Shown piece by piece: positions 880 to 38,865 of a DNA stretch of 64,000 nucleotides. The notes beneath the pieces were generated by a model, which worked only from the letters and a program-made list of their open reading frames with translations, did not search any database and was not told the origin of the DNA. The DNA comes from an uncultured Gammaproteobacteria bacterium (GTDB lineage: Bacteria > Patescibacteriota > Microgenomatia > UBA1406 > GWC2-37-13), in NCBI GenBank assembly GCA_964459595.1, contig CAYWLV010000001.1, positions 84,056 to 148,055 on the forward strand, read 5' to 3'. The first letter of the stretch is position 1; each line of letters starts with the position of its first letter. Position numbers and translations under genes: made by a program.

Positions 880-929
880 TGTATCATAGGCTTTTGGGAA
901 AAGAAAAAAATGATACAATTGTTCACATA

Positions 930-4128: not shown

Positions 4129-4943
4129 AAACTCCTCTAGCTTCGATACTCGTATGTTCTCATAACGCAGAAGAGTTTATTAAAAGTACTGTGCTTTCGA
4201 TTTTGAATCAATCATTTCGGGACTTTGAGCTGCTTATTCTTGATGACGATTCATCTGATAACACTGTACCCATACTCAAAGAGCTTCAAAGGGCTGATTC
4301 TCGCATATCTATTTTTGAAAGTAAAAAGAATTATGGCCCTTATAAGGGGCTTAATTTTCTGATTAATAGGGCGCGAGGCTCATATATAGCAATAAACGAT
4401 CATGATGATATCTGGCACAGTAGTAAGCTAGAAAAGCAAATTATCTACCTAGAATCTCATCCAGAAAGCGTAGGGTGTGGGAGTAGTATTATAAACTGGT
4501 ATGAGCAGTATCAGAAAGGAATTTTGAGAAAGCAGCCGCCGAACCATACTGTGGCCTGGCATACCTCACTCGTATTTCGGAATAATGGATATAAATACGA
4601 CCTTACAATATCCGTTGGTACAGATTTTTATTTTATGCATAATATTCTTTGCAAAGATGGTAATCGAATTCACAATATTGACGAGCCTCTTGTATTTAGA
4701 CGAATTTGGAAAGAACAAAAAAATCTTTCAAGCAGTTGGATGAAAAAGATGAGGATAACAGATATAGTCAAACTATATGTTCCTCTGGTTGATAAGCTTG
4801 CATTATTAAACAGAAGACTAATCCCCTCCGCAATTACAGAGTGGCTCTTGATACATATACTACATGCGTATAATGTAGTTACTCCCAATCAGATTCGAGA
4901 GAAAGAATTATTGAGAGAGTTTCGTCAATTTATAGTAGCGTAG
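4113..4943 (+). CDS. Glycosyltransferase family 2
   Basis: ASILVCSHNAEEFIKSTVLSILNQSFRDFELLILDDDSSDNT. The start is either TTG 4113 or GTG 4125, the latter giving a GTGA overlap with the upstream stop. Confidence 0.75.
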   Translation: MYEKVKTPLASILVCSHNAEEFIKSTVLSILNQSFRDFELLILDDDSSDNTVPILKELQRADSRISIFESKKNYGPYKGLNFLINRARGSYIAINDHDDIWHSSKLEKQIIYLESHPESVGCGSSIINWYEQYQKGILRKQPPNHTVAWHTSLVFRNNGYKYDLTISVGTDFYFMHNILCKDGNRIHNIDEPLVFRRIWKEQKNLSSSWMKKMRITDIVKLYVPLVDKLALLNRRLIPSAITEWLLIHILHAYNVVTPNQIREKELLREFRQFIVA

Positions 4944-8589: not shown

Positions 8590-9602
8590 TCTCTTTTGTT
8601 GTTTTTTAAAATTGCGTAATTATGCTCTATTGCATCAAGATGAAGTCCATGCAATTTATCTGCCCGTTTGGCTGAGAGTTCAAAGAAGTGAGAGAAGAAG
8701 AAGAGCGACACTTTCAAATATTGGCTTTGCTGAGCGAGGCGATTATGCTTTATGCCAAATGGAATTCGAAGAAGAGATTTTGCAAAAAACTTTAAATACT
8801 CTCTCCAAAATATTCGTCTTGGAAACCAGAAGAAAGTATGTAAAAGCCTTCCCAGCTCGCTATGATAGATAAAAAAGTTTGAGAACTCTCCCGCGGACGC
8901 TGCATGGACATGATGAACAACGGCTTTCGGCGCATACATGATTTTATATCCATGCATTTTTGCTCTTTCGGAGATCTCCACATCTTCGTAGTACATGAAA
9001 AAAGTATCATCAAGCAGTCCAATTTTTGTCAGGGCAGACTTTCGATACAACGCAGCAACAGCACAGGCAGCATACGTTTCTTTCTCTCTTTCAAATTGGC
9101 CAACATCTTCCGCATAGTCTTGCGAATGCCCTTTTACCACAGCGCCCACATCTCTTCCATATCCATCGTTAAACATAACAATTCCTGCATTTTGGATTTT
9201 ATTGGTTTTCTGCAGATATACTTTAGATCCAACTGCAAACACTTTTTCATCTTTTTCTGCCACTTTCACGAGCTCCGTGAGCCAATTGGAATCAACAAGG
9301 CAGTCATTATTGAGCAGAATAACATACTCACCTTTTGCAATTTTGATCCCTTCATTGTTTCCTCCAGCAAAGCCGAGATTTCGGGGAAGAGAGAGTAGTT
9401 GGTAGTTTGTAGTTAGTAGTTTATTTGATGAAATCCAATTCGAAATTATACTAGAGCTTTTGTCGCGAGAGGCATTATCTACAATAATCACTTCATATCG
9501 GACTTTTGGATAGGAAAGATGAGAAAGTGACTCTAATGTATCTTTTATGAACTTTTCTCCTTGAAAATTAAGAACGATGACGCTGCAAAAGGGGTATGAC
9601 AT
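8586..9602 (-). CDS. Glycosyltransferase family 2
   Basis: CSVIVLNFQGEKFIKDTLESLSHLSYPKVRYEVIIVDNASRDKS...LLNNDC. There is a 4-nt overlap with the downstream GT4 gene. Confidence 0.8.
   Translation of the reverse strand: MSYPFCSVIVLNFQGEKFIKDTLESLSHLSYPKVRYEVIIVDNASRDKSSSIISNWISSNKLLTTNYQLLSLPRNLGFAGGNNEGIKIAKGEYVILLNNDCLVDSNWLTELVKVAEKDEKVFAVGSKVYLQKTNKIQNAGIVMFNDGYGRDVGAVVKGHSQDYAEDVGQFEREKETYAACAVAALYRKSALTKIGLLDDTFFMYYEDVEISERAKMHGYKIMYAPKAVVHHVHAASAGEFSNFFIYHSELGRLLHTFFWFPRRIFWREYLKFFAKSLLRIPFGIKHNRLAQQSQYLKVSLFFFSHFFELSAKRADKLHGLHLDAIEHNYAILKNNKRE
9391..9424. repeat. In-frame heptamer tract (GTTAGTA/GTTGGTA flavour) in the GT2 gene
   Basis: gagagtagttggtagtttgtagttagtagttta encodes NKLLTTNYQLLSL. 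It shares agtagttggtag and gtagttagtag with 59121-59150. Confidence 0.6.
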
Positions 9603-10623
9603 ATTGTTTTACTATTTTTTTTAGTTTGAAAATAATCAGCGAGATATAATCATTATACCGATAAACCCCTCCCCATACACGCGCAATGTATTCTCTTCTA
9701 TTCTCAATATTTTGAAATCTCTCAAATATCTTTTTATCTGCTATTTTTTGCTTATTGTGGCGAAAGATAAAGTATGAAAACAACTGCGGCACTACTCCCC
9801 TTCTCGTATATAATTCATCCAATTCAAGTATTTTCTTCACATGAGAGACTGCATTTTTTTTATGCAAGTTTGGATTATGCGTGAGAAGTAAATATGCTAT
9901 TCCTCCTCCAGTATTGTGTTGTTCCCATAATGTTAAGTATCGGTTGAGCGTTTGGAGTATTAGTTCAGAATGAATTGCCTCTGTAGGATCTTCTTCAAGC
10001 ATCACGGGAACGGATGGGTAGAGTAGCATTGGGTGCTGCTTTGAGGAGGGCAATTGATTATTAATGCGTTGTACTAATCGCCATTGAGCACTTGTATATT
10101 GATTTCTGTGAGGACCGATATAATCAAAATTTACAAAAATACCGTTATTCGAAAGTGAGTTGGCTAGGCAGTGAATGAAAGAATTTATATATTGGATATG
10201 ATGAAGTCCCGCGACATTTACAATTAAATCAAATGAGCCCTTTTTAAACGTAATTGTATTCGCATCAGCACAAATATACTTGATGTCTCGCTTTCTTTTT
10301 AATTTCTTTGCTTGTTTGATAAGGTCTGTAGAGTAGTCAAATGCAACTGCACTTTTTACGATTTTCTTGTCGATAAATTCTCGTTCAATTCTTCCATTTC
10401 CACAATTTATAAAGAGAGCTTTTTTAAATGGCTTATGAGCATATTTTCTTTTGAACTCGTCAATCCACCAGACATTTTTATCTCCTGTAAAGTTGGCACA
10501 CATGTATTCTCGAACGAGTGGAATATCGTTCCAATAGGTATTTTTGTAGTAGACAGAAAAGTTATTATTAACCACCGTACCGTTTCCCATTGTGCCTATT
10601 GTATCAAAACTATTTTGATACAA
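9568..10623 (-). CDS. Class I SAM-dependent methyltransferase
   Basis: ALFINCGNGRIEREF (motif I-like)...DLIVNVAGLHHI...NGIFVNFDY. Confidence 0.6.
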   Translation of the reverse strand: MYQNSFDTIGTMGNGTVVNNNFSVYYKNTYWNDIPLVREYMCANFTGDKNVWWIDEFKRKYAHKPFKKALFINCGNGRIEREFIDKKIVKSAVAFDYSTDLIKQAKKLKRKRDIKYICADANTITFKKGSFDLIVNVAGLHHIQYINSFIHCLANSLSNNGIFVNFDYIGPHRNQYTSAQWRLVQRINNQLPSSKQHPMLLYPSVPVMLEEDPTEAIHSELILQTLNRYLTLWEQHNTGGGIAYLLLTHNPNLHKKNAVSHVKKILELDELYTRRGVVPQLFSYFIFRHNKQKIADKKIFERFQNIENRREYIARVWGGVYRYNDYISLIIFKLKKIVKQYVIPLLQRHRS

Positions 10624-10632
10624 TGGCTTAAT

Positions 10633-12228
10633 ATGAGGAAATACATCATTCTGATATTACTTCTAGCTTTTGCTGCATCAATCCGTTTATATCAATCCGG
10701 TCTTCCCATCTCTGAAGTCGACTATCCTGGGCACATAGTTGCCTCTATGAGACTATTTTCTTCTTCCCTCATATCGCTACGGCCGTCATCCAACTTAATA
10801 ATTCAACTATTTTCATTTCGTCATGGATATACAACTCAACTATTTCCAGCGGTCTTTTATTCTATTTTTCATCTACTCCTTAAATTTCCCATCACAGAAA
10901 GTACGCTTGCTATCACTAATATTTCAATAGGAATAATTAGCTTACTGGTAATTTTCTTTTTCATTTATACGTTGTGGGACAAAAAGACAGCATTAATAGC
11001 TTTGACATTATTTTCAATTCTTCCCATACATGTAAGTTTGAGTAGAGTGCATGTGGGTACCCAGCTTATTCAAGGTATATTTTTCTTCTTATCAATAACG
11101 TTTATTTATCGTTATATTCAAAAACAAAATCAATTTGATAAGAACTTGTATTATGTCACTACATTCTTTCTCATTGGTTCGGATAATATATTTCCGGTGA
11201 GTTTAGCGCTTCATATTTTGCTTCTTTGGTATTTAAGCAATAATTCTCGTCAAATGATGGGGAATTACATAAAAGTTTTGTACCTAAACTTACAATCGTT
11301 CGTGTGTATTGCTGCTCCAATCCTTTTATATATTTGCTTTGATGTGATACGACTTGTTAAGTATGGAAGTGAAGCACCAGGAGGGTTTTTATTTCGCACA
11401 CTGGGAAAAACATCTCACCTCTATTTCGATTTAATTCGACCGCTTAACTGGAGCATGCAACTTATTGGCATTCCCCTTGTCGTAACTTTCATCTATTTTA
11501 TGTTCAAATCACTCATATCAAAAAAAGGAAATTGGGAAAGTTCGTATATGTATTTGATTATTGTTATCTATTATCTTCTCCTCACTTATGGAAAGGAGGT
11601 AGAGCGCAGCTACATCTATTTTATTGCTGTACCACTTGTAGCGATTGTTGCAAGAAAAATCAATACACAAGGTCTTATTTTTCCTGTAGTAGTAATTTCA
11701 ACTTTCATCTATATGGTAAGTGTCATTTTTAACGTGCCGATAATAAATCCAACCATAAAAGCGTATGGGAGCACTCAATGGAGGAGTGAAGCACCTGATA
11801 ATGGACTTAAAACTCTTGGATATATTGTGCGAAAGCATATAGTAGCAGCAAACTCTACTTCATATGGAAAGCTGGTAAAGCTCAACATAATTCTTGATGC
11901 ACCAGGAGGATGGTATTATTTGGGAGATTATTTTTTTGATATACCTTCACATGATTTAAACGGGTCAACAAAGCTAATAAATACTTTATATATTGTACGA
12001 CAAGATATGAATAGAGAAGAAAATACCATCCTTAAGAATTATGTTGTCGTAAATAAACTCCGTAAGATAGCAGTAATAACTAAAAATAAAACTGAAATCC
12101 TTACATTATATTCACATTTGGCAACTGACAAGATTAAGGAATTCCCAATAAGTCAATATAACTCACTGTATGACAATGAGTTTGGAAATCTTAAATCTCT
12201 CGGAAAACTCTATCTAGGAATCTACTGA
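10633..12228 (+). CDS. Polytopic membrane protein, candidate GT-C family glycosyltransferase
   Basis: The ORF is 10312-12228, but its first 107 codons are antisense to the neighbouring gene. The in-frame ATG at 10633 gives MRKYIILILLLAFAASIRLYQSG..., followed by many TM helices and a soluble C-terminus. Confidence 0.5.
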   Translation: MRKYIILILLLAFAASIRLYQSGLPISEVDYPGHIVASMRLFSSSLISLRPSSNLIIQLFSFRHGYTTQLFPAVFYSIFHLLLKFPITESTLAITNISIGIISLLVIFFFIYTLWDKKTALIALTLFSILPIHVSLSRVHVGTQLIQGIFFFLSITFIYRYIQKQNQFDKNLYYVTTFFLIGSDNIFPVSLALHILLLWYLSNNSRQMMGNYIKVLYLNLQSFVCIAAPILLYICFDVIRLVKYGSEAPGGFLFRTLGKTSHLYFDLIRPLNWSMQLIGIPLVVTFIYFMFKSLISKKGNWESSYMYLIIVIYYLLLTYGKEVERSYIYFIAVPLVAIVARKINTQGLIFPVVVISTFIYMVSVIFNVPIINPTIKAYGSTQWRSEAPDNGLKTLGYIVRKHIVAANSTSYGKLVKLNIILDAPGGWYYLGDYFFDIPSHDLNGSTKLINTLYIVRQDMNREENTILKNYVVVNKLRKIAVITKNKTEILTLYSHLATDKIKEFPISQYNSLYDNEFGNLKSLGKLYLGIY

Positions 12229-13202
12229 GATCTTATCAGATTAAACACAAACGCTTTTAAGCGCTCATATATCTTAAAGAAGATAAAAAAATGAGATTGA
12301 ACAATACGATTATATTGCTGCTCAATATAGCTTTGATTTTGAGCAACGGTTCTAAGCCGCACAATTTCATCTATTAGCAAACTTGAATTTATATCAATCT
12401 TTTTCCGATTGGCAAAATGCTCTGTATAGCGAGATTTATTTAGACGTAAGTATTTGGGTAACTCAGATAGGGCAACTGAATAAAATCGTATTGGTCGCTC
12501 AAAAATATCCAAATTATTATCAATATAGAGAGGCATCCTCTTGATAAGCTCTGGTGAGTTAAATTCTTGGTGAATATAAGCCTTTATCTTTTCAATAATT
12601 TTTTTTTGACCTCCTAAAAATGAAAAATGCCATCCCCCATTCTGAATCAAACTGACAGATGTAGTCTCCCTCAAATATTGCATATATTCTATATTCATAA
12701 ACTGAGCTGCTCGTGTTCCTATCCATTTCTCTTTCGACTTTAAGTCAAAGTAGTAGTAATGAAAGGTCTGTTCAAATCCAAAAAAGCGCGCTTTATGAAT
12801 CTGTTTTTTGAGTTGTCTTACAGCACTAGCTTTAGGGATTTCATCTACATCGCTGAGAAGTATTATATCTTTTGGCTTTGCATTTTTTAGCCCGTGGCAA
12901 ATTGAGTTGCGATGAATATGTTCATTAATCCCAGCTTGTATATCTTGGGTAGGATAGCCGTGAGGATAGGGCTTCAGAAGTGAAAGTTCACTATAATCAT
13001 TTATTACAATATGAATAATTTTATGTAGATAGCTACTAAATCGATGTTTATTATCATTAAAGTGGAGCGGCTTTTTTTTACCAGTATGAGTAAGTTTAGA
13101 TTCAACAAGAACAAATGTATCGACAATCTTTGACAGCTCTTTCAATCGAATTTCTAAAAGATCAAGTTCATTATAAAAAATGAAAGTGTCAAATATTTTC
13201 AT
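12222..13202 (-). CDS. Glycosyltransferase family 17-like (beta-1,4-mannosyl-glycoprotein GlcNAc-transferase family)
   Basis: The N-terminus MKIFDTFIFYNELDLLEIRLKEL..VDTFVLVES..TH.GKKKPL matches the GT17 N-terminal signature as I recall it. Confidence 0.6.
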   Translation of the reverse strand: MKIFDTFIFYNELDLLEIRLKELSKIVDTFVLVESKLTHTGKKKPLHFNDNKHRFSSYLHKIIHIVINDYSELSLLKPYPHGYPTQDIQAGINEHIHRNSICHGLKNAKPKDIILLSDVDEIPKASAVRQLKKQIHKARFFGFEQTFHYYYFDLKSKEKWIGTRAAQFMNIEYMQYLRETTSVSLIQNGGWHFSFLGGQKKIIEKIKAYIHQEFNSPELIKRMPLYIDNNLDIFERPIRFYSVALSELPKYLRLNKSRYTEHFANRKKIDINSSLLIDEIVRLRTVAQNQSYIEQQYNRIVQSHFFIFFKIYERLKAFVFNLIRSQ

Positions 13203-14032
13203 AATAATCTTAATATTTTTTTTCTAATATTACAATAAATTTGCCAGGCATTGTAAACTTTTGATGATTGAATTATTTCTAAATCTTGATTCTTTCTATC
13301 TAACAGTAAGTTAAGTTCGTTGATATATAAAATTAATGAATGTTTTTTTTGAACTTCTAGCCTTTTGTTAAAATTATATGTTTCCCTGTATTTGTTTTGT
13401 AGTTTAAGTTCTATTTTCTTTAATTTATTAAAAATAGATTTATTTCTGATAATAAGGCCTAAACCTTCTGAGTGATGAAAAGATATAGTATTTTGTTTTT
13501 CTTTAATCTCTTTCCATAGTTTATGTACGCCAAAACCTCTAGACAGCACATCTATATCATGAAGCATGATAACTCCATCGTCCTTTACTTTGGGTGACCA
13601 CTTTAGATAGTCGTTTTTAACAGCCTCGTAAGTGTGCATCCCATCGATATGAAGCAAATCTATCGAGTTATCTTTAAAACTTAGCACCGCATCGTCAAAA
13701 TACTTTTTTACTAAGGATATATTAATTTTTTTATATATATTATTTGATATATATCTTACGTTTTTTAGAATATCGCTACCATATCTTCCAGTATGGTCTT
13801 CGCCTTCCCAGCAATCAATTGCATAGATTTTAGATCGCAATTTACCGTCAAGAACAGCCTGACTAAATGAAAATAATGATGTACCTTTATATGTTCCTAA
13901 TTCAACTATCACTTTAGGTCGAATATTTCTAATTAGGTCATATCCAAAGAATATATGACCAGTCCATGGAAGGTGGTAGTCGTACATTACCGCATGATAG
14001 TCATACGTTGGTCTATATGATTTCCAATTCAT
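13199..14032 (-). CDS. Class I SAM-dependent methyltransferase (Methyltransf_24/CmcI-like)
   Basis: VIVELGTYKGTSLFSF...IDCWEGEDHTG...DLLHIDGMHTYEAV...IMLHDI. The ATG at 14032 forms an ATGA overlap with the upstream stop. The ORF track start at 14113 is less likely. Confidence 0.6.
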   Translation of the reverse strand: MNWKSYRPTYDYHAVMYDYHLPWTGHIFFGYDLIRNIRPKVIVELGTYKGTSLFSFSQAVLDGKLRSKIYAIDCWEGEDHTGRYGSDILKNVRYISNNIYKKINISLVKKYFDDAVLSFKDNSIDLLHIDGMHTYEAVKNDYLKWSPKVKDDGVIMLHDIDVLSRGFGVHKLWKEIKEKQNTISFHHSEGLGLIIRNKSIFNKLKKIELKLQNKYRETYNFNKRLEVQKKHSLILYINELNLLLDRKNQDLEIIQSSKVYNAWQIYCNIRKKILRLL

Positions 14033-14835
14033 TTTTGGGCTTGAAGCACAGTGATTTGTGCAGAATTTGTCAACATTAAATAGAACAAAATGAGTGGAAT
14101 TTTTATTTTCCAAGGAATGAATTTAAGAAGACTATTATTTATATGCATTAGAATTTCCCATGCCTCGTTAAACTGCGAGTCGACTTCGTATCTACTGTAA
14201 CCTTTAATATTTCTAAAACCATTTTTTGTTAACAACTTAATTCCAGGCTTTGGGGGGATAAAAGTTAAATGTTCAGCCAGTATCTGATACCATTGGTCTT
14301 TCATTAATCTATATAACAAGGATTCTGGGTTTGGTGTTTCGATATAGAAGTATGATTCATAAGCCATTACTCTTCTGACTTCTTTTAGTGTTAGATTGAT
14401 TTCTTTTAAGAATAAATGTTCTAGATGTTGAGAAGAAATAACTATATCTACACTATTATCTGGCAATGATATCTTAGTGCTACTAGAAATAATAAATCTT
14501 TGATATTTAGTGTCTTTAAAGTATTTTTTTAAATGAGGGTCAATATCAAGCCCGACATAGAATATTTTTGATTGAATCTTTTTATTTATATTTGCAATTG
14601 ACTTTACTAACAGCGCATCCCCACAGCCAATATCTAAAATATTTATATTTTTTCTTTTCAGTTTTTTGATAAGACTTATGAGTACTTTTTCAAAATGCCT
14701 GATTATATGATGTTGACGTTCGCCATAATGCAATATATTTTTTTTATTTCGAGTATCAATATAAGATCCGTAGTTGATTCGCCTATTATTAGTGTTTAAA
14801 TAGATACCTTCTTTATTTTGTCTAAAGCTCAGCAT
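14029..14835 (-). CDS. Class I SAM-dependent methyltransferase
   Basis: NILDIGCGDALL (motif I)...VDIVISSQHLEHL. Confidence 0.65.
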   Translation of the reverse strand: MLSFRQNKEGIYLNTNNRRINYGSYIDTRNKKNILHYGERQHHIIRHFEKVLISLIKKLKRKNINILDIGCGDALLVKSIANINKKIQSKIFYVGLDIDPHLKKYFKDTKYQRFIISSSTKISLPDNSVDIVISSQHLEHLFLKEINLTLKEVRRVMAYESYFYIETPNPESLLYRLMKDQWYQILAEHLTFIPPKPGIKLLTKNGFRNIKGYSRYEVDSQFNEAWEILMHINNSLLKFIPWKIKIPLILFYLMLTNSAQITVLQAQK

Positions 14836-14927
14836 AGTTAATTAGAAACAATGCTTTTAAAATTCGAGATTATTATATACTATTCTAGGATAATTTAATT
14901 AATTACTGCCTTAGGTGAAGATAATAT

Positions 14928-15923
14928 CTAGAGAATCCTTCTAACAATCTTATTATAAAAAGAAGTAATCCTGCTATAAGTTCTATCAACTAAAGTTATT
15001 GACTCAAAAAGATTACTATTCAAAAATATTGGCGGTTCCTTACGCAGTAAAATAGCCTCCTTACGAGAAGAATTAGTAACATCATTTTGAATATATGCAT
15101 CGATGAATGGAAATAATGAATATTTATCAAGAATAAGTTCCTTAGCCTTTCGAATATCTGGAAGAGATTGAGCATAATGGGAAGGATCATTTATTATTTT
15201 CAAAATTTGATTTGCTGTGTTCTGAGGGTGAGTGAGATCGATTTTTATATAGCTTCCCTTCGGAAAGTATGACTCGATATTTTTACATCCAAAATAAAAC
15301 GGGTATGTTTCTGTGAGATAGGCGTCTGCAAGTTTTTCTGTGAAGTAATCTTCATGTTGAGAGTTTTCAATGACGATAGAGTATTTATAGGGGCTGAGGG
15401 CTTCCCCCTTATCTGAAAAGTCTTGGATTCCTCTCCCAAATAAGTCTAGCCTATCCCCCAGTATCTTTTTAATCTCATGAGCAAAGGTTAATCGAGCCCT
15501 ATGGCCATCGGTGTAGAGCTTAGTAGAAGTGATGAGACAGATATCTTTTGTCTTTGCTGGGTGATTATCTTTAAGTTCTTCATATGGTTCTTTCACATAC
15601 CATGGGTTTGATTGTTGATTCCATATGATGTGAGGGTGATTTAAGTTTGTGTGACAAGTTACAAGTGTATAAAACTGGCGAATAAACCATTTTGAGTAGG
15701 TGCGAAACGTGGGAGGCTCCCAAGTAGTAAAAATAGTATGCTTTTTTGGACAAATTACTTCTTCATCAGTCTGGAGACCATCAAACACAAACCAGTAGTC
15801 GCATTCTTTTACAGAGTTATTTATTTCAAACTGATATTGTTCAAATCCAGATTTTGGTAGTTGATTGATAAGCGTCCATGTGGGACTTTCTGTAGTTATT
15901 TTGACAACCATCTTATTACTCAT
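14928..15923 (-). CDS. Glycosyltransferase family 10-like (alpha-1,3/4-fucosyltransferase family)
   Basis: YKYSIVIENSQHEDYFTEKLADAYLTETYPFYFG matches the GT10 signature FENS..DY.TEK...A.....P.Y.G. Confidence 0.6.
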   Translation of the reverse strand: MSNKMVVKITTESPTWTLINQLPKSGFEQYQFEINNSVKECDYWFVFDGLQTDEEVICPKKHTIFTTWEPPTFRTYSKWFIRQFYTLVTCHTNLNHPHIIWNQQSNPWYVKEPYEELKDNHPAKTKDICLITSTKLYTDGHRARLTFAHEIKKILGDRLDLFGRGIQDFSDKGEALSPYKYSIVIENSQHEDYFTEKLADAYLTETYPFYFGCKNIESYFPKGSYIKIDLTHPQNTANQILKIINDPSHYAQSLPDIRKAKELILDKYSLFPFIDAYIQNDVTNSSRKEAILLRKEPPIFLNSNLFESITLVDRTYSRITSFYNKIVRRIL

Positions 15924-17029
15924 CTAAATCGTTTCAACTTGTTTAATAGCGTCCACACTTTATAAAATTTACTTCGTACAATTTTTGCATGAAGGGGATA
16001 AATGGAGTTGTAGCCAAAAAAATTATTTGCTTCAATAGACTTTACCACGTACTCAACAAGTCCTGTATTTACCTTTTTTTCTTTAAAGTTCCATTTTGTA
16101 GATTCATATATATCAAGTAAATGTTTCACTACAACCTTTGATGAAAAGCAGTTCAGAGCTAGTGTTCTTAGTTGTAACCCGTATGATGCTTTGTACTTTT
16201 CCAATTCAAGAGCAATCGACGCAATACTAACTGGTTTGTTGAGCTCTTTACCGGTGAATCCCGCATCAAGTAGGACTTGAAAATTCGATGGAGTGATAAT
16301 TCCATCAAACCCAGTTTTGTCCAATATAATAGGCACTCTTCCACACAGCATAGCTTCCATTACTCCCCGCCCAAGAGAAAAAACAATGTCTGACTTGTTT
16401 ATGTATTCTGGTAAGTCACTATTCTTAACTTCTCCAAATTGCCCCCCCATAAATCTCACATCTATAGAATAGGATGCGCACGCATTCAGTATTTGTTTTC
16501 TAAGTAAATCGGGAAGTTTAGTAGACATTACAAGCGCTTTGTGTGGCGTATGATGAATGGGTGATTGCGGGTAAAAAAGATCCTCATTTATGATATTGTT
16601 TACTCGAAAAATGTGCTTTTTTGCAACTTTTTTGGAAATAAGATTCTTTTGAATCAACTCTGAAACAGCACCAAATCGTGAGATATTTATATCAATTAAT
16701 GGAGGTTGTTCGAGAAAGTGAATAGAACCATGAGATAGAAAGAATATAGGTAAATCGGGAAACTGGTGACGCACTTCAAGTGCAGTGATGTTGTGATGCA
16801 CATGGGCAATATCGAAATCTACTGCCGCATAGTCTGTGATATCTGTGGTAACTGGCACAAATATATCATCTAAGTCTTTCTCAAGTTTGCCCAGATATTT
16901 TGTATATACACACACGTCGTGTCCTTCCCGCTTGAGAGTGCGGGCGAGCTCAAAAGTGAATAGTTCTGTTCCACCATAATTTACTAAATGATGATTGGTA
17001 AGGAGTATTTTCATAGAGGTATAATTCAT
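15920..17029 (-). CDS. Glycosyltransferase family 4 (GT-B fold)
   Basis: MKILLTNHHLVNYGGTELFTFELARTLKREGHDV...GVMEAMLCGRVPI. Confidence 0.7.
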   Translation of the reverse strand: MNYTSMKILLTNHHLVNYGGTELFTFELARTLKREGHDVCVYTKYLGKLEKDLDDIFVPVTTDITDYAAVDFDIAHVHHNITALEVRHQFPDLPIFFLSHGSIHFLEQPPLIDINISRFGAVSELIQKNLISKKVAKKHIFRVNNIINEDLFYPQSPIHHTPHKALVMSTKLPDLLRKQILNACASYSIDVRFMGGQFGEVKNSDLPEYINKSDIVFSLGRGVMEAMLCGRVPIILDKTGFDGIITPSNFQVLLDAGFTGKELNKPVSIASIALELEKYKASYGLQLRTLALNCFSSKVVVKHLLDIYESTKWNFKEKKVNTGLVEYVVKSIEANNFFGYNSIYPLHAKIVRSKFYKVWTLLNKLKRFR

Positions 17030-17064
17030 TATACGGGTAACTTGTGATTTGATACAATAAGAAG

Positions 17065-17865
17065 ATGCAGAAGATTGGCAAGCTGTTTAAGAACTTGAAG
17101 CTCCTTTGGAACTATCGGGAGCTGTTGTGGAACTTGGCAAACCGCGAAATTACGCAGCGCTATAAGCAAAGTGTGCTCGGATATGCATGGGTGATACTCA
17201 ATCCCCTTTTTCAGCTTATCGTGATGAGTTTTGTTTTTGATGTGGTATTGAGAGTTTCTTCGCTTGGAGTACCGTTTATTTTGTTCCTTTCTGCAGCACT
17301 CCTGCCTTGGAACTTATTTACGCAAAGCCTCACATCATCATCAAATGTCCTCGTAAGCAATAGCCACTTAATCACAAAAATATATTTCCCCAGAGAAATA
17401 CTTGTATACAGCACCATCATTGCAAAAATGGTGGACTTTTTTTACTCCTGCCTTGTACTTATATTTTTCCTTATCATATTTAAAATCCCCGTCACCATTT
17501 ATTATCTCTGGCTCCCCCTCATTTTTGTTATTCAGCTTTTTCTGATGGCAGGCATTGCTCTTCTTGTTGCAGCACTCAATTTATTTTATCGTGATATTCA
17601 ATACCTCCTCACACTTATCCTCCTTTTGTGGATGTATGTGACACCCATCATGTACCCAATTGAGATGATTCCAGCACAGTATCGCTTTATTATGTCACTG
17701 AACCCCATGGCTGTAATTGTGAATGCATATAGACAGGTACTTCTTTCAGGGAATCCTCCCAATTTGTATAGCTTGACTGTGGCGGGATTAATTTCATTTG
17801 CTGTATTTGCATTTGGATTTACCGTGTTTAAAAAGTTAGAAGGAGAGTTTGCAGACTATGTCTAA
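17065..17865 (+). CDS. ABC-2 type polysaccharide/teichoic-acid export permease (Wzm/TagG-like)
   Basis: ELLWNLANREITQRYKQSVLGYAWVILNPL is followed by 6 TM helices. The partner ATPase gene lies directly downstream. Confidence 0.8.
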   Translation: MQKIGKLFKNLKLLWNYRELLWNLANREITQRYKQSVLGYAWVILNPLFQLIVMSFVFDVVLRVSSLGVPFILFLSAALLPWNLFTQSLTSSSNVLVSNSHLITKIYFPREILVYSTIIAKMVDFFYSCLVLIFFLIIFKIPVTIYYLWLPLIFVIQLFLMAGIALLVAALNLFYRDIQYLLTLILLLWMYVTPIMYPIEMIPAQYRFIMSLNPMAVIVNAYRQVLLSGNPPNLYSLTVAGLISFAVFAFGFTVFKKLEGEFADYV

Positions 17866-18595
17866 TATCGCAATCCATGCAGAAAATGTTTGTAAAAAAT
17901 ATCATCTGCAAAAGCAGAGGACGTTTAAAGAGTTTCTCCCTGCTCTTTTGGGTGGTGCGGATACGGTAATTAAATTTAACGCGCTCTCTCACCTGAATTT
18001 TGAACTGGAAAAAGGAGATTCACTGGGGATCTTGGGAAAAAATGGATCGGGAAAATCAACACTTCTTAAGGTGATTGCTGGAGTGACAAAGCCGAGTGAT
18101 GGGCGCATCACAGTGCGAGGGCGTGTTGCTCCATTAATTGAACTGGGAGCTGGATTTCACCCAGAGCTAACAGGCCGAGAAAATGTATATCTCAATGGTT
18201 CTATTTTGGGAATTAAACATCGCGATATGGAAAAACTATTTCCATCTATTGTGGCATTTGCAGAACTTGAAGAGTTTATGGACCAGCCAACGAAATATTA
18301 TTCATCGGGAATGTATATGCGCCTTGCATTTGCTGTGGCAGTTGCAGAAACGCCAGACATTCTTCTCGTGGATGAGATATTGGCGGTGGGAGACCAAAAA
18401 TTTCAAAAGAAATGCTTGAACAGAATGGAAGAGTTTAAAAAAAGTGGGAGCACCATGATGATGGTGAGCCACAGCCCTGAACAACTCAAAAAATATTGCA
18501 ACAAAGGGTTAGTCCTTCATGCAGGCAAGCAGCTTTTCTACGGAAATATGGAGCAGGCAGAGGCAATTTATGACGAGATAATGGAGCAAGCATAA
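17849..18595 (+). CDS. ABC transporter ATP-binding protein (Wzt/TagH-like, without a C-terminal glycan-binding domain)
   Basis: Walker A GKNGSGKSTLLK, signature SSGMYMRLAFA and Walker B LLVDEILAVGD. An alternative start exists at 17858. Confidence 0.85.
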   Translation: MQTMSNIAIHAENVCKKYHLQKQRTFKEFLPALLGGADTVIKFNALSHLNFELEKGDSLGILGKNGSGKSTLLKVIAGVTKPSDGRITVRGRVAPLIELGAGFHPELTGRENVYLNGSILGIKHRDMEKLFPSIVAFAELEEFMDQPTKYYSSGMYMRLAFAVAVAETPDILLVDEILAVGDQKFQKKCLNRMEEFKKSGSTMMMVSHSPEQLKKYCNKGLVLHAGKQLFYGNMEQAEAIYDEIMEQA

Positions 18596-18620
18596 ATAAA
18601 TATGCTACAATGATTTTCTC

Positions 18621-19721
18621 ATGACCAAAATATTTATTTCAGGATCAATGGCCTACGATGATATTATGGTCTTTCCACATCATTTTAAAGACTACTTTCA
18701 TCCGGAAAAACTACATCAAATAAATGTGTCATTTGCAGTCAGCGAATTGGCAAAACATTTGGGAGGAATTGCCACAAATGTGAGTTATGCGCTACGAAAT
18801 ACATGTGATTATTACGTGCAAAATCCTAAATCCCAAACACTAAATCCTAAACAAACCCCAAATTCTAAATCAAAAATAAATCAAGACGGGAACATTTCAA
18901 TTTATCCCGTGGGGGCGGTGGGGAGAGATGGCGATTTGCTTCTTGATTTTTTTAAAAAGAATTCAATAGACAGCTCATACGTACTCAAAGATGAAAAACT
19001 CTATACGGCAACGGGAAAAGTGATTACAGACATGAATGATAATCAAATATGGGGGTTTTACTACGGGGCCTGTTGCATAAATCCTAAACTCGAAACCCTA
19101 AAAACAAAACAAATGGATCAAAATTCCAAATCCCAAAAAGAGGATCAGTTTTGGATTGTGTCTGCGACGCATGAGAAGCCGTTCACCACTGTTCTCCGAC
19201 ATGTTATTCAAAATAAACTCCCCTACATGTTTGATCCCGGTATGGCCCTCACCTGGATCCGAGATGATTTGCTTAAAAAAGGAGTGCTGAACGCAACATA
19301 CGTTGTTGGTAATGATTACGAGATTGCAATGATAGAAAAACGATTGAAGATGAGTGTAGTGGAGATAGTGAAGGGCGGAGTGAATGTGATCACAACACTG
19401 GGAGAAAAAGGCGTGAAATACGATGAGGTACTAAATGAAGAAATGAAGAAATATCCAAATGAAAAAATAAATATATCTCACAAGACTCACGCTGTAGTGA
19501 AGGCGGTGAGAGTGAGGAAGGTAGTTGATCCTACCGGAGCAGGTGATGCATGGAGAGGTGGATTTGTGGGAGCGCTAGTTGCAGGTAAGTCTATTCGCGA
19601 GTGCTTAGTGATGGGAAATGTGATGTCGAGTTTTGCGGTGCAGGCGATGGGGACGGTGGAGTATAAGGCAGAGAGGAAAGAGATAGAAAAACGAATAAAA
19701 ACTCTAAACCCTAAACAATAA
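18621..19721 (+). CDS. PfkB-family carbohydrate/nucleoside kinase (adenosine-kinase candidate) with low-complexity inserts
   Basis: C-terminal DPTGAGDAWRGGF (PfkB signature 2). It lies next to ahcY. The last codons (KTLNPKQ*) read into a repeat arm. Confidence 0.7.
   Translation: MTKIFISGSMAYDDIMVFPHHFKDYFHPEKLHQINVSFAVSELAKHLGGIATNVSYALRNTCDYYVQNPKSQTLNPKQTPNSKSKINQDGNISIYPVGAVGRDGDLLLDFFKKNSIDSSYVLKDEKLYTATGKVITDMNDNQIWGFYYGACCINPKLETLKTKQMDQNSKSQKEDQFWIVSATHEKPFTTVLRHVIQNKLPYMFDPGMALTWIRDDLLKKGVLNATYVVGNDYEIAMIEKRLKMSVVEIVKGGVNVITTLGEKGVKYDEVLNEEMKKYPNEKINISHKTHAVVKAVRVRKVVDPTGAGDAWRGGFVGALVAGKSIRECLVMGNVMSSFAVQAMGTVEYKAERKEIEKRIKTLNPKQ
18818..18886. repeat. In-frame CTAAAYY-type heptamer tract in the PfkB kinase gene
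   Basis: aaatcct|aaatccc|aaacact|aaatcct|aaacaaa... encodes QNPKSQTLNPKQTPNSKSKINQ. Confidence 0.7.
19077..19140. repeat. In-frame CTAAAYY-type heptamer tract in the PfkB kinase gene
   Basis: ataaatcctaaactcgaaaccctaaaaacaaaacaaatggatcaaaattccaaatcccaaaaag encodes INPKLETLKTKQMDQNSKSQK. Confidence 0.65.
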
Positions 19722-19826
19722 ACTCTAAACAAATAAATACAAAATTCTAAATCTTAAATATAAAGATTTGAAATTTAGTATTTAATAATTTGATTAGGAT
19801 TGAGGGTTTAGTATTTAGAATTTATA
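19699..19826. repeat. Family-A heptamer hairpin element (CTAAAYY arm / RRTTTAG arm), copy A1
   Basis: Left arm aactctaaaccctaaac..ctctaaac, box aaataaatacaaaa at 19731-19744, inner palindrome aaatctt/aagattt at 19749-19769, right arm gattaggattgagggtttagtatttagaattt. Confidence 0.75.
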
Positions 19827-19835
19827 GTTAATCTT

Positions 19836-21116
19836 ATGACCTACGATGTGAAGGATATCAACTTGGCGGATTCTGGAAAACAGTTAATCGAGTGGGCGGA
19901 GAGAGAAATGCCGGTGCTTCGCCTTATTAAAAAACGATTTGCAAAAGAAAAGCCACTCAAGGGAGTGACTCTTGCAGCATGCCTTCATGTAACAAGTGAA
20001 ACAGCAAACCTCATGAGAACACTGAAAGCCGGAGGAGCAAATGTATGTTTAGCAGCAAGCAATCCCCTTTCCACAAATGATGCAGTGGCGGCAGCACTCG
20101 TGAAGGAATATGATATTCCCACATTTGCAATAAAAGGAGAAGATAACAAAACATACTTTAAGCACTTGAATGCCACACTCGATTTCAAACCAAATATGAC
20201 AATGGATGATGGTGCAGATTTGGTGAGCATTTTGCACACCACTCGAAAAGAACTTCTCAAAGGGGTGGTAGGTAGCAATGAAGAAACAACAACGGGGGTG
20301 ATTCGCTTGCGCGCAATGGAAAAAGATAAGGCGCTCAAAATCCCAGTTTTGGCAGTGAATGATAATCTCACAAAGCACATGTTTGATAATCAATATGGAA
20401 CGGGACAAAGCACACTGGACGGCGTGATTCGCGCCACCAACATGCTTCTTGCCGGCCGCAACTTTGTTGTGGTTGGGTATGGATGGTGTGGACGAGGACT
20501 CGCACGACGAGCACAAGGAATGGGAAGTCATGTGATTGTGTGTGAAGTGGATGCTGTAAAAGCGCTTGAGGCGAGAATGGATGGATACCGTGTGATGCCA
20601 CTTGTGGAAGCAATGGCGATTGCAGATGTGGTGGTCACTGTTACCGGAGACAAACATGTGATAGACACCCCTCACATTAAAGCAGCAAAAGATGGGCTTA
20701 TTCTTGCAAACTCAGGACATTTTGATGTGGAGATAAACAAAGTTGCCATGAAAAAGCTTTCAAAAAGCATTCGCACGGTGCGCCCATTTGTGGAAGAGTA
20801 TCTACTAGAAGACAGAAGTAAGAAGACAGAAATAAGAACCAAAAAAATATATCTGTTGGCAGACGGACGACTGGTGAACCTCGGCAGTGCTGAAGGACAC
20901 CCTGCGAGCGTAATGGATATGAGCTTTGCTGGGCAAGCATTGGGAAGTGAATATATGTGGAAGAATAAGGGGAAGTTTGAAAATAAAGTATATTCCCTAC
21001 CTGCTAATGTGGATCAAGAAATAGCTGCACTCAAACTGAAAAGTGAGGGTGTAGAAATTGACAAGCTTACCGCTGAGCAGAAAGAATATTTGAATAGCTG
21101 GAAGGAAGGAACGTAA
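19836..21116 (+). CDS. ahcY: Adenosylhomocysteinase
   Basis: [22 protein letters not shown]...[10 protein letters not shown]...[17 protein letters not shown]; full-length match to the family. Confidence 0.95.
20806..20840. repeat. In-frame AGAAGAY-type heptamer tract in ahcY
   Basis: tagaagacagaagtaagaagacagaaataagaacc encodes [12 protein letters not shown]. The 21-mer at 20806-20826 is identical to the intergenic 44146-44166. Confidence 0.75.
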
Positions 21117-21123
21117 GTTCCTT

Positions 21124-21191
21124 AACAAATCCTAAATTCTAAACTCTAAATCCTAAGCAAATAAAACAAAAATCTTAAATCTTAAAGATTT
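21124..21191. repeat. Family-A element A2: left arm, box and inner palindrome
   Basis: aaatcctaaattctaaactctaaatcctaagcaaataaaacaaaaatcttaaatcttaaagattt is colinear with A1. The palindrome aaatctt-a-aagattt lies at 21177-21191. Confidence 0.7.
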
Positions 21192-21570
21192 TCGGATTGC
21201 TCGCTTTTGAAGACTTGAGTATTCCTCCTAAGATGAGGGACAATTCGTGAGTTTCTTTCCACAGAGTACGAAGTGATTCCTTTCTATCTGGAAATTCAAC
21301 TGCCAATAATCGAATCCAATAGAGTGTTTCTTTACTTTCTTTTCTAGAAATAGATACTTTATTTATGAAATCTTTTTTGCTATCGCAGGCATTTGCCTCC
21401 ATGTAATTAGCTCCAATACTTGTTCCACTTCTGAGTAGTTGGTCAATGAGGGGGCGAGAAATTGTAGAGATTGTTAAGGACTTACAAAATAGAATTAATT
21501 TTTCACTAAAAATGGAAACACGCTCTTCTAGATTGTATGTTTTTGTAATTGTTTTAATATTTTGCCCCAT
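21175..21570 (-). CDS. Four-helix-bundle protein (23S rRNA intervening-sequence protein family)
   Basis: RSGTSIGANYMEANACDSKKDFINKVSISRKESKETLYWIRLL is the characteristic core of this family. The gene is nested between the two halves of repeat A2. Confidence 0.8.
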   Translation of the reverse strand: MGQNIKTITKTYNLEERVSIFSEKLILFCKSLTISTISRPLIDQLLRSGTSIGANYMEANACDSKKDFINKVSISRKESKETLYWIRLLAVEFPDRKESLRTLWKETHELSLILGGILKSSKASNPKIFKI

Positions 21571-21607
21571 TTGTTTAGAGTTTAGGATTTAATATTTAGA
21601 GTTTACC
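21571..21607. repeat. Family-A element A2: right arm
   Basis: ttgtttagagtttaggatttaatatttagagtttacc starts immediately after the ATG of the nested gene. Confidence 0.7.
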
Positions 21608-21626
21608 GCTATCCGATTTCCCTAGT

Positions 21627-21648
21627 CAACGGTTTATAAGCCGCAAAT
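21627..21648. repeat. Short palindromic motif, copy 1 (caacggtttataagccgcaaat)
   Basis: It is the reverse complement of 35872-35893 with one mismatch. The core is cggYttataagccg. Confidence 0.6.
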
Positions 21649-24676: not shown

Positions 24677-24802
24677 CTAAATCCTAAACTCTAAATTCTA
24701 AACCCTAAACTAAGATACGCAAAAATCAAAATTTCTAAAACAATTAAATTTTGGATTTAATCTTTTGAGAATTAGGTTTTAGGGTTTAGGATTTAGAATT
24801 TA
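24677..24802. repeat. Family-A heptamer hairpin element A3
   Basis: The left arm ctaaatc|ctaaact|ctaaatt|ctaaacc|ctaaact has perfect period 7. The right arm is attaggt|tttaggg|tttagga|tttagaa. Confidence 0.8.
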
Positions 24803-24833
24803 TCTCGCTTCGTTTCGTGTATAATATAAAGCT

Positions 24834-26269: not shown

Positions 26270-26384
26270 AACCTAAACCCTAAACAATAATCTCTAAACA
26301 AATAAATACAAAAATTTCAAATTTTTGACTTATTTTTCAGATTTGGGATTTGATTAGGTTTTAGAATTTAGAGTTTAGAATTTT
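26270..26384. repeat. Family-A heptamer hairpin element A4
   Basis: Left arm aacctaaaccctaaac...tctctaaac, box aaataaatacaaaa at 26300-26313, right arm gattaggttttagaatttagagtttagaatttt. Confidence 0.75.
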
Positions 26385-26390
26385 AACATT

Positions 26391-28230: not shown

Positions 28231-28354
28231 CAATTTTTAATTTTAAATTATTAATTTCTAATCAATAGTTAATGACTTAATTTTTAAAAAGTTTATAAAT
28301 TAAAATATAGTTAAAAATTAAAAATTAGATATTAAAAATTAAGATGAAAATTAG
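28231..28354. repeat. Family-B AT-only heptamer hairpin element B1
   Basis: T-rich left arm caatttttaattttaaattattaattt and A-rich right arm ttaaaaa|ttaaaaa|ttagata|ttaaaaa|ttaagat. Confidence 0.65.
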
Positions 28355-29314: not shown

Positions 29315-29322
29315 AATAGGTT

Positions 29323-29450
29323 TAAATCCTAAATCCTAAAAACTAAATCCTAATCAAACCCTAAATAAAAAATATCAAACACTAAAAGAAATATTTTAGG
29401 ATTTGAGACTTTGTATTTATTTTTATAGAGTTTAGGGTTTAGGATTCAGA
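29323..29450. repeat. Family-A heptamer hairpin element A5
   Basis: Left arm aaatcct|aaatcct|aaaaact|aaatcct, reversed box near 29411-29424, right arm tagagtttagggtttaggattcaga. Confidence 0.75.
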
Positions 29451-30331: not shown

Positions 30332-30393
30332 TTGTGTACGTGAATTATACCACAAATACAGCTAAAAAGCGAGACTATAGGAGGGCTTTTAAA

Positions 30394-30516
30394 ACACTAA
30401 ATCCTAAAAACTAAACCCTAAACAAATCCTAAATAGGTACAAAATAGGCGCTAAATACCTGTCGATTAGATTTTGGCAAATTTGAATAAAATTTATGATT
30501 TAGGATTTAGTGTTTG
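30394..30516. repeat. Family-A heptamer hairpin element A6
   Basis: Left arm acactaaatcctaaaaactaaaccctaaacaaatcctaaat, right arm atgatttaggatttagtgtttg. Confidence 0.7.
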
Positions 30517-30527
30517 CTCATTTAGCC

Positions 30528-33098: not shown

Positions 33099-33107
33099 AA
33101 TAAAAAT

Positions 33108-33220
33108 AAAATCCTAAACTCTAAAAACTAAACTCTAAACAAATTCTAAATCATAAATCCTAAATATTTTAGGATTTTGACATAATTGATTAGGATTTAG
33201 GGTTTAGTATTTAGTGTTTG
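33108..33220. repeat. Family-A heptamer hairpin element A7
   Basis: The left arm is aaatcctaaactctaaaaactaaactctaaac. A perfect 10-bp inner stem aaatcctaaa-tat-tttaggattt lies at 33155-33177. The right arm is gattaggatttagggtttagtatttagtgtttg. Confidence 0.8.
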
Positions 33221-38662: not shown

Positions 38663-38784
38663 GATCGTATCACTTTTTCGCTCGCAAGCGAAATATTCTA
38701 GGAATTAATAATTAAATTTAATGACAAATTGTCAGCCTAGAGTTATAATGACTCTACAAGTATAGCACAGCACACTAAGAATAA

Positions 38785-38860
38785 CAAATCCTAAACTCTA
38801 AACAAAACCTAAATTTGAAATTTAGTATTTTATTGAATCCATTTGTTTAGGATTTAGAGC
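38785..38860. repeat. Family-A heptamer hairpin element A8 (short)
   Basis: Left arm caaatcctaaactctaaacaaaacctaaat, right arm atttgtttaggatttagagc. Confidence 0.75.
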
Positions 38861-38865
38861 TTAAC

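Follow-up and report, generated by a model that had tools for sequence, protein, structure and literature searches.

Some of the intervening sequences (IVSs) of bacterial rRNA genes, such as those of Leptospira and Coxiella burnetii, carry an open reading frame (ORF) in the loop of a long stem whose two strands are terminal inverted repeats; the encoded proteins, such as S23p of Coxiella, belong to the four-helix-bundle (4HB) family PF05635, and ORF-less versions of the elements exist alongside the ORF-bearing ones. In the 23S IVS of Coxiella, a 28-bp terminal stem is accompanied by tandem GACAGAT heptamers just upstream of the S23p ORF and by RNase III cleavage, the copy number of the heptamers varies between strains, and the ORF itself has been reported to be decaying and, probably, untranslated (PMC4990558). 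ORFs of this family (23S_rRNA_IVP) have also been found in rRNA insertions of bacteria of the Candidate Phyla Radiation (CPR) (PMC11270868). Here, we describe a comparable element in a low-GC (about 37%) stretch of 64,000 nt (hereinafter, the window) from the genome of an uncultured member of Patescibacteriota (contig CAYWLV010000001.1, positions 84,056 to 148,055). Positions 21125-21629 of the window comprise a self-contained 4HB cassette, in which a TIGR02436 gene, preceded by a promoter of host type, is hugged at its start and stop codons by two inverted arrays, each of about five heptamers. A sequence-only reading of this locus had described a 4HB gene nested inside one hairpin element; beyond that reading, we find that the arms of the hairpin are arrays of 7-nt repeats and that the same arrangement recurs around genes of the 4HB family well outside this genome.

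The 4HB ('S23p') family includes thousands of members, with 6611 matches to the window protein at E ≤ 1e-5. Structures of these proteins have been solved since 2006-2007, and a function is known only for a distant relative, Avd, the accessory variability determinant of diversity-generating retroelements (DGRs); Pfam's PF05635 model picks up Avd-like proteins beside DGR reverse transcriptases (PMC10053308). Heptameric repeats, in turn, have been reported as the most abundant long simple repeats in most bacterial genomes and are unexplained (PMC4679880, PMC4692102). The published cases, including GGGAATC in Xanthomonas, GGGGAYT and others in Nostoc and Calothrix, and TAACTGA in Beggiatoaceae, Cyanobacteria, and Bacteroidetes, resemble the repeats described here in being intergenic 7-nt arrays of about four units, often in inverted pairs, near start or stop codons (PMC4692102, PMC4679880). 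In Xanthomonas, 186 GGGAATC arrays have been described, mostly of four units, with 70-75 convergent pairs per genome (PMC4692102), and a four-unit GGGAATC array lies over the start codon of XCC0516, the gene for the 4HB protein with the solved structure 2GSC (PMC4692102, supplement). Unlike the present analysis, these two studies draw no connection with the 4HB family (neither 'S23' nor 'four helix' appears in their texts) and discuss G-quadruplexes or translational regulators. A limited literature search found no paper tying the 4HB family to heptamer, tandem, or inverted repeats.

Abundant intergenic palindromic elements that abut genes, as do the repeats of the window, include Correia/nemis elements of Neisseria, enterobacterial ERIC elements, and REPINs with their REP-associated tyrosine transposases (RAYTs). 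Transcripts of nemis are substrates of RNase III. Unlike tandem heptamers, these elements have defined termini and, in the case of Correia, a TA target duplication; furthermore, the autonomous partners of REPINs and of MITEs (miniature inverted-repeat transposable elements) encode transposases (RAYTs for REPINs), whereas the window element encodes a 4HB protein. Nemis and ERIC have been named as comparable short palindromic repeats (PMC3116915).

Results

A 4HB gene enclosed between inverted heptamer arrays

The 4HB gene, as read directly from the sequence, occupies positions 21175-21570 on the minus strand (stop codon 21175-21177, ATG 21568-21570), encodes a protein of 131 amino acids, and is the single copy of this family in the window, where the cassette sits between the AdoHcyase and GT2 genes. 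According to the sequence-only reading, the gap between the two arms is exactly one minus-strand gene, with the stop codon in an inner palindrome (21177-21191) and the ATG abutting a right arm that starts at 21571; these coordinates proved exact to the base. In the sense of the gene, the 5' arm (the right arm on the plus strand; 21571-21605, minus strand) consists of five heptamers, TAAACTC, TAAATAT, TAAATCC, TAAACTC, and TAAACAA, followed directly by the ATG. Tandem Repeats Finder (TRF) reports a period of 7 and 4.7 copies for this arm, which reads ttgtttagagtttaggatttaatatttagagttt on the plus strand where it adjoins the ATG and pairs with 21125-21157. The latter segment, the 3' arm (the left arm on the plus strand), is built of AAATCCT, AAATTCT, AAACTCT, AAATCCT, and AAGC (TRF period 7, 4.3 copies), and the inverted repeats are 83-94% complementary to 21573-21605. 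The 3' arm sits 17 nt past the stop codon, with the box GCAAATAAAACAAAAATC in between; in the gene sense, this box and the inner palindrome aaatctt-a-aagattt (together, 21158-21191) make up the 3' untranslated region right after the stop codon, which they overlap.

The window also contains 16 ORF-less hairpins with arms of the same kind, and the proposed colinearity of the 4HB element with one of these, the intact hairpin A1 (19697-19832, predicted ΔG -29.8 kcal/mol, with outer heptamer arms, CAAAT box, inner stem, and loop), is borne out by alignment: 21127-21189, including the box and the inner palindrome, matches 19699-19761 with 76% identity, and 21569-21605 matches 19788-19824 with 81% identity. 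The first bases of the 4HB start codon come from the 'CAAAT' box, which in the ORF-less hairpins closes the outer arm.

For the duplex between the arms, the predicted energies are -32.0 (mRNA sense) and -30.3 kcal/mol (plus strand), compared with means of -17.7 and -14.5 kcal/mol, respectively, for 500 dinucleotide shuffles, none of which pairs as well as the real arms. Both the minimum free energy fold and the centroid fold predicted for the whole 501-nt RNA are closed by the arm stem, with a whole-sequence z-score of only -0.88; as in an IVS, the terminal inverted repeats are predicted to pair into a long stem with everything else in the element inside it. When the gain in flank pairing was compared across all 56 genes of the window, the 4HB gene ranked 5th because any gene located between two hairpins inherits complementary arms; flank-pairing gain was therefore dropped as a discriminator, and arm order and cross-genome data were used instead. 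What is special at the 4HB gene is the order of the arms and the lack of a nearer partner arm: from 18.6 kb on, L and R arms follow each other on the plus strand in strict alternation (L,R,L,R), with 16 L-R pairs separated by 60-110 nt and only the pair around the 4HB gene about 440 nt apart. As the in-window test does not single out this gene, the decisive evidence must come from other genomes.

Upstream of the 4HB gene, at 21600-21629 on the minus strand, there is a promoter-like site, TTGACT and TAAACT with an 18-nt spacer; the first heptamer of the 5' arm provides its -10 hexamer, and the conserved block GCGGCTTATAAACCG precedes the site. A consensus scan alone does not place this site above chance; the block GCGGCTTATAAnCCCTTGnnn-N17-TAAACT is kept in all seven aligned Roizman-type loci, and further upstream their sequences are unrelated. 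We considered whether the arms are sigma-70 promoters in general and rejected this possibility: arrays of AATTTAC yield TTTACA-N17-TACAAT, other heptamer variants yield no such site, and transcription from the inverted partner would be antisense. The promoter reading is kept only for the Roizman-type loci, where the -10 element is the first heptamer.

The 4HB protein is conserved and under purifying selection

The assignment of the encoded protein to the 4HB family first described in rRNA IVSs holds: it matches both PF05635 (54.3 bits against a cutoff of 33.8, E = 1.8e-14) and TIGR02436 (76.6 bits against a cutoff of 24, E = 1.5e-21), and a profile of 40 homologues matches PDB entry 2RLD with E = 1e-21. 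The NCBIfam scan of this protein returned only TIGR02436 and a sub-threshold match to NF008912, and no match was found in defense-system and phage libraries. In the AlphaFold2 (AF2) monomer model (predicted local distance difference test score of 90.1), helices span residues 14-30, 38-60, 65-92, and 94-123, and the tails are disordered. The 4HB core domain covers residues from about 14 to 123, and the N-terminal 13 or so and the C-terminal 8 or so residues derive from repeat-like sequence; the C-terminal tail of the window protein, ASNPKIFKI, is absent from relatives. The closest structural matches in a Foldseek search are 2RLD (BT_0352; TM-score 0.90, rmsd 2.0) and 2GSC (Xcc0516; TM-score 0.82), followed by the more distant match to the DGR protein Avd (4DWL/8UBE; TM-score 0.7-0.8). 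The 2RLD structure contains five chains, and 2GSC has been described as a homopentamer (PMC4990558). Although Avd has the same four-helix-bundle fold, the window protein is only about 15% identical to it and does not reach the NCBIfam Avd model. Neither a reverse transcriptase nor a pair of template and variable repeats adjoins the 4HB gene; in locus L001, the neighbors up to about 9 kb away from the cassette encode GT2, AdoHcyase, PfkB, an ABC transporter, and glycosyl- and methyltransferases.

The closest named homologues of the window protein come from Candidatus Roizmanbacteria. Comparison with relatives gives dN/dS values of 0.03-0.11 with saturated synonymous sites, that is, unlike the reportedly decaying and, probably, untranslated S23p ORF of Coxiella, the window protein is under strong purifying selection. 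Given that the arms are still recognizable at this level of divergence, the protein and the non-coding arms are both maintained. The window element further differs from the rRNA IVSs in that it lies outside an rRNA gene and has its own promoter: an Rfam search of the 64-kb window detected one tRNA (45791-45863) only and no rRNA gene, and rRNA probes had no match in 170 fetched loci.

Inverted heptamer arrays flank 4HB genes across Patescibacteria

Proteins 68-80% identical to the window protein were traced to contigs from other samples. At all seven independent loci (the window, L002, L005, L008, L012, L013, and L014), the 4HB gene is bracketed by arms in unrelated contexts and with constant orientation: (CTAAAYY)5 upstream, ending in ..CTAAACAA directly before the ATG, and (RRTTTAG)n downstream. 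In L012, the stop codon is followed by gatttttgCAtttATTTGTTTAG, which is similar to the box of the window element. The unit conserved among the aligned relatives extends from the promoter-like block to the downstream arm, and the sequences outside it are unrelated.

We then scanned Patescibacteria at large, with one genome per GTDB species, which yielded 79 loci from many CPR classes, and compared the 150 nt upstream with the 150 nt downstream of each gene with complete flanks, with a score of at least 15 taken to indicate an inverted repeat. Inverted repeats flank 69 of the 83 4HB genes (83%) as opposed to 31 of the 440 control genes from the same loci (7%; Mann-Whitney p = 5e-32), and the corresponding figure for direct repeats, the other control, is 5%. 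The expectation, put forward along with the sequence-only reading, that other copies of the gene would be bracketed by arms is thus borne out at all seven close-relative loci and for 83% of the 83 genes from 79 further genomes. Three of the control genes turned out to be further 4HB genes, and other positives among the controls are genes of the GxxExxY family or RAYT-like transposase genes with REP-like palindromes.

The arms of the Patescibacteria cassettes are 35 nt long at the median; 12 nt separate the upstream arm from the ATG, and 13 nt the stop codon from the downstream arm. Among the 69 upstream arms, 50 have their best period at 7, and an arm typically contains 4-5 units. We propose a class of heptamer-flanked 4HB cassettes, defined as a 4HB ORF between inverted arrays of about 4-5 x 7 nt located no more than about 20 nt from the start and stop codons; the window element, with its 5' arm of exactly five heptamers abutting the ATG, falls within this definition. 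The sequence of the arms in other Patescibacteria differs from that in the window and is typically (AATTTYN)4-5 AATCAA. Arms from the same locus pair better than arms drawn from different loci (p = 4e-11). In most of the other Patescibacteria loci, ORF-less hairpins are rare (about 0.5 per 10 kb), which indicates that the arms are part of the cassette and not of the genomic background.

The cassettes are tightly packed between genes of the same direction. The upstream neighbor is co-directional in 57 of 63 cases, with a median of 2 nt from its stop codon to the arm, and the downstream neighbor in 56 of 65, with a median of 8.5 nt from the arm to its start; for comparison, in the same loci, 78% of adjacent ORFs are co-directional, with a median spacer of 58 nt. 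Several divergent 4HB copies per genome occur, and L014 combines two cassette types with different heptamers in one genome. The nearest-neighbor protein has the same heptamer type in 31 of 42 cases, compared with 12.5 expected, so that protein clade and heptamer type are co-inherited.

Two pairs of loci differ in arm length. L008 (2804-2890) and L010 (817-870) encode the same protein in the same context and, in the downstream arm, differ by an indel of five heptamers (35 nt), and the downstream arms of L185 and L186, again with the same protein and context, differ by exactly one CTCATTA unit. Thus, arm length is polymorphic between strains, as reported for the heptamers of the Coxiella IVS.

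Several other genes with flanking repeats merit description in their own right. Genes for GxxExxY proteins (TIGR04256, E about 1e-27) in L031 (660-1049) and L036 (2625-3011) lie inside inverted repeats that look as if they were themselves built of repeats, for example, tctttacgaattactaattgtgtacgaatatacta; this similar flanking suggests that genes other than those of the 4HB family can also occupy hairpin cassettes. Mutually similar genes in L024 (5767-6342), L037 (1955-2668), L063 (3175-3879), and L082 (4543-5217) are flanked by GC-containing palindromes of 25-29 nt and look like REP/RAYT arrangements in CPR genomes; the L037 copy, the only one of the four scanned, matches the REP-associated tyrosine transposase model below the cutoff (E = 2.5e-12). 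Finally, L046 (4512-4829) encodes a small protein with a GIY-YIG-like N-terminus and no NCBIfam match, accompanied by the flanking palindrome tcgtcattcccgcgaaggcgggaatcc.

Heptamer-flanked 4HB genes in other phyla

A tblastn search of plasmids identified 4HB genes in Nostoc, Planktothrix, Pseudanabaena, Gloeocapsa, Euhalothece, Anabaena, Bernardetia, Chondrinema, Treponema, and Chlorohelix. Among these plasmid loci from Cyanobacteria, Bacteroidota, Spirochaetota, and Chloroflexota, 8 of 12 score at least 15 in the inverted-repeat test, compared with 2 of 84 annotated neighbors. Most of the 12 contain lineage-specific 7-nt arrays, namely, AATTCAA, AATTCGT, AATTCGC, AATCCCC/AATCGTA, GATTAGT, GAAAGTG/CTCTCCG, GAAGGAT, TTTTAGA, and TGGTCAC. 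Inverted heptamer arms surround the 4HB gene in three of four IMG/VR contigs as well. The heptamer of the window, CTAAAYY, differs from the published repeat units; in other respects, the repeat situation in Xanthomonas is much like that in the window.

The plasmid cassettes interrupt varied operons, including cas2/cas1, csx2/cas1, helicase/N6-methylase, DUF1156/Swt1-HEPN, and RND adaptor/pump (4HB loci L178, 9998-10345; L179, 9998-10366; L176; L180; and L181). The domain '23S rRNA IVP' is listed as CRISPR-associated in guilt-by-association surveys (PMC3936711, PMC10910872), and intrusion of cassettes into operons may explain this association.

ORF-less hairpins and other repeats of the window

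The heptamer of the arms is degenerate and reads CTAAAYY or, on the opposite strand, RRTTTAG; motifs of this type have 100 matches in the window against 0.72 expected. The ORF-less hairpins are 81-136 nt long, with predicted energies from -14 to -36 kcal/mol, and, together with the ORF-bearing element, fill 17 of the 30 intergenic spacers of at least 60 nt; the median gaps between their ends and the adjacent genes are 8 and 5 nt, regardless of gene orientation. A1 itself fills the spacer between the PfkB and AdoHcyase genes, and its first 25 nt encode the C-terminus of PfkB (..IKTLNPKQ*). Other hairpins lie between divergent genes (24677-24803, ΔG -36.1 kcal/mol; 49909-50020), between minus-strand genes (29322-29449, ΔG -36.2 kcal/mol), between convergent genes (52564-52692), or 5 nt from each of two plus-strand neighbors (26273-26385). 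The rest are located at 30390-30517, 33107-33214, 38784-38864 (a short one), 41182-41305, 42599-42721, 49448-49564, 55939-56038, 57125-57219, 57832-57945, and 58807-58934. Just outside the cassette, a 7-bp hairpin read directly from the sequence, AAGGAAC-GTAA-GTTCCTT (21106-21123), covers the stop codon of AdoHcyase, the convergent neighbor; it has no T-run, and no terminator was called there.

CTAAAYY arrays are also present in frame within the gene for the PfkB-family carbohydrate kinase (18621-19721, plus strand), at 18819-18876 and 19077-19137, where they encode NPK/SK-rich inserts (..QNPKSQTLNPKQTPNSKSKINQ.. and ..NPKLETLKTKQMDQNSKSQKE..) in a single orientation and with no partner arm. 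A second family of ORF-less hairpins, (AATTTTT AATTTTA AATTATT AATTTCT AATCAAT ... AAAAATT)n, is found at 28232-28345 and, additionally, at about 61202-61303 and 63862-63932; this is the general CPR type, that is, the arm type around 4HB genes in most other Patescibacteria, and the window contains no 4HB gene with such arms. A third repeat family has a period of 8 nt (AAGTCTGA; 63159-63290 and 45714-45764) and takes two forms, each found once: an inverted pair in the spacer 63157-63291 and a direct array, about 5.6 units long, that ends 27 nt upstream of the tRNA gene (45791-45863). The first 18.6 kb of the window lack CTAAAYY hairpins and encompass a cluster of glycosyl- and methyltransferase and ABC-transporter genes, in part with a lower GC content; positions 1-18600 may be a recently acquired island.

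Duplications and putative insertion scars

Within-genome duplicates of cassettes (L028 and L067/L088) were examined as candidate transposition events and rejected; because the duplicated stretch includes sequence of the neighboring gene, these are segmental duplications. In L067 (62-236) and L088 (107-251), the cassette is preceded by a copy, about 90 nt long, of the 5' end of the downstream ABC-ATPase gene, and this fragment ends at the same codon (..SLRGAV) in both loci. In L086, a 12-nt direct repeat, ATTATGGGCATA, which includes the start codon of the downstream gene, hugs both arms (around 4745 and 5140). The repeats in L067/L088 and L086 may be insertion scars, which are not a general feature of the cassettes.

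Discussion

The window element is an IVS-like, ORF-bearing stem-loop located outside rRNA. The architectural likeness to ORF-bearing rRNA IVSs, which had been drawn from the sequence alone, is strengthened by the tight placement of the cassettes between co-directional genes and by the presence of heptamers in the Coxiella IVS. Because the architecture is that of the ORF-bearing 23S rRNA IVSs excised by RNase III, the cassette most likely is an IVS-like passenger of transcripts; the analogy is apt in architecture and, with regard to mechanism, is an unproven extrapolation. Under this scenario, the arms would pair in the transcript to form a stem of about 35 bp, or up to about 60 bp with the inner box, so that the ORF would become the loop of a double-stranded stem and the flanking host sequences would be brought back together. 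The stem would then be a substrate for RNase III, and the insertion would be insulated from, or cut out of, the host transcript, which would make it tolerable to the host. The 16 ORF-less hairpins would be ORF-deleted, amplified derivatives, akin to MITEs that arise from full elements, a relationship suggested by the fact that, in most other genomes, arms flank 4HB genes and are rarely found elsewhere. We favor this reading, with the cassette carried in transcripts and the ORF-less hairpins as its derivatives, with roughly even confidence that it is correct.

Several observations weigh against the scenario of an IVS-like passenger. The sense strand shows no excess of mismatches compatible with G:U pairing (99 vs 89, p = 0.51); such mismatches have the expected direction for the window hairpins between minus-strand genes (34 vs 18) and the opposite direction, with small numbers, for those between two plus-strand genes ('++' contexts), so that pairing could equally matter at the DNA level. 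For the hairpins between divergent genes (24677 and 49909), it is not obvious that they are transcribed together with one of the two neighbors. Whether cassettes gave rise to ORF-less hairpins or vice versa is judged only from how the two are distributed, and the 7-nt periodicity is not explained by the RNase III model. With respect to mobility, exact (longest common substring) and gapped searches for target-site duplications beyond the arms of 69 cassettes gave the same result as the cross-locus null; the 80 closest AdoHcyase loci in JGI metagenomes are at most 84% identical, none is syntenic downstream or contains a 4HB gene, and no empty site was found among them; and the within-genome duplicates take in neighboring genes. 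The window copy itself is atypical in having its own promoter and in lying at a convergent junction, not inside an operon. Finally, the sample outside Patescibacteria is small (16 loci and 2 literature cases).

The periodicity of the arms would be accounted for if the 4HB protein and the repeats formed a cognate system, in which arrays of 4-5 heptamers, as RNA or DNA, would be bound by the presumably pentameric protein, those next to its own gene would serve autoregulation, and the ORF-less hairpins elsewhere would be its regulatory or structural targets. This possibility does not exclude an IVS-like origin and would explain both the 7-nt period and the constraint on arm sequence, which goes beyond pairing (the median score of cross-locus arm comparisons is 14.8 vs 8.7 for shuffles). 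The correspondence between protein clades and heptamer types (31 of 42), and the coexistence of two cassette types with different heptamers in the L014 genome, point in the same direction; the former correlation, however, is confounded with host phylogeny. The typical 4-5 units per arm, like the mostly four-unit arrays of Xanthomonas (PMC4692102), are compatible with a pentamer, as seen in the five chains of 2RLD, the homopentamer 2GSC, and the homologue Avd, a nucleic-acid-binding pentamer in the DGR ribonucleoprotein. That the 4HB protein, with its Avd-like fold and pentameric solved relatives, recognizes heptamer arrays is nevertheless speculative: within the family, binding is known for Avd alone. 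Strong purifying selection fits a cognate system, whereas the S23p of Coxiella, reported as probably untranslated (PMC4990558), does not, and the inverted, ORF-hugging placement of the arrays is left unexplained. On balance, we regard such a cognate system as a tentative and rather doubtful account.

An unlikely alternative is a mobile element that operates at the DNA level, with the arms being terminal inverted repeats or single-stranded DNA hairpins recognized by a transposase or recombinase encoded elsewhere, the 4HB protein a cargo or accessory, and the ORF-less hairpins MITEs. The many dispersed copies with conserved ends, the unrelated contexts of the cassettes, the lack of strand bias in G:U-compatible mismatches, and the isolated insertion-like scars (the 12-nt direct repeat in L086 and the duplicated 5' gene fragment in L067/L088) all fit such an element, and the RAYT-like transposases with REP-like palindromes recovered by the same scan show that such systems exist in these genomes. 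However, the gene enclosed in the window is a 4HB gene, not a RAYT gene, and the RAYT-like genes found elsewhere have different palindromes; no transposase is linked to the cassettes, and the 69 cassettes show no general target-site duplication. Moreover, the arms are tandem arrays of variable length, with differences of 7 or 35 nt between near-identical loci, rather than defined termini, and the positions of the cassettes respect gene boundaries to within a few nucleotides. The simplest view, that this is an ordinary host gene whose 5' and 3' untranslated regions pair by chance, in the service of mRNA stability or translational control, amid unrelated generic hairpins, could draw on the conserved host-type promoter, the purifying selection, and the complementary arms of every window gene located between two hairpins. 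It is highly improbable, though, considering that the arms share sequence family and internal order with the ORF-less hairpins and still flank 4HB genes where hairpins are rare (0.5 per 10 kb), that homologues lie inside rRNA IVSs and in the middle of unrelated operons, and that there are several divergent copies per genome; the cross-phylum pattern would go unexplained.

These observations raise the prospect that the PF05635/TIGR02436 proteins and heptamer repeats are parts of one widespread system, in which each 4HB gene is carried within an inverted pair of arrays of 4-5 heptamers that its pentameric product recognizes, the intergenic heptamer excess (GGGAATC in Xanthomonas, the cyanobacterial repeats, and the window hairpins) largely consists of ORF-less derivatives, and rRNA IVSs are copies that landed in rRNA. 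We put forward this generalization as a conjecture that is possible but, for now, less than probable. If the link holds more widely, the function of the 4HB family and the heptamer excess would share one testable handle, the protein and its cognate 7-nt array. It could also explain spurious 'associations' of the 4HB domain with CRISPR, restriction-modification, and other operons, and would provide a marker for annotating small intergenic hairpins in uncultivated Patescibacteria. The rRNA IVSs would then be one landing site of a general transcript-borne cassette.

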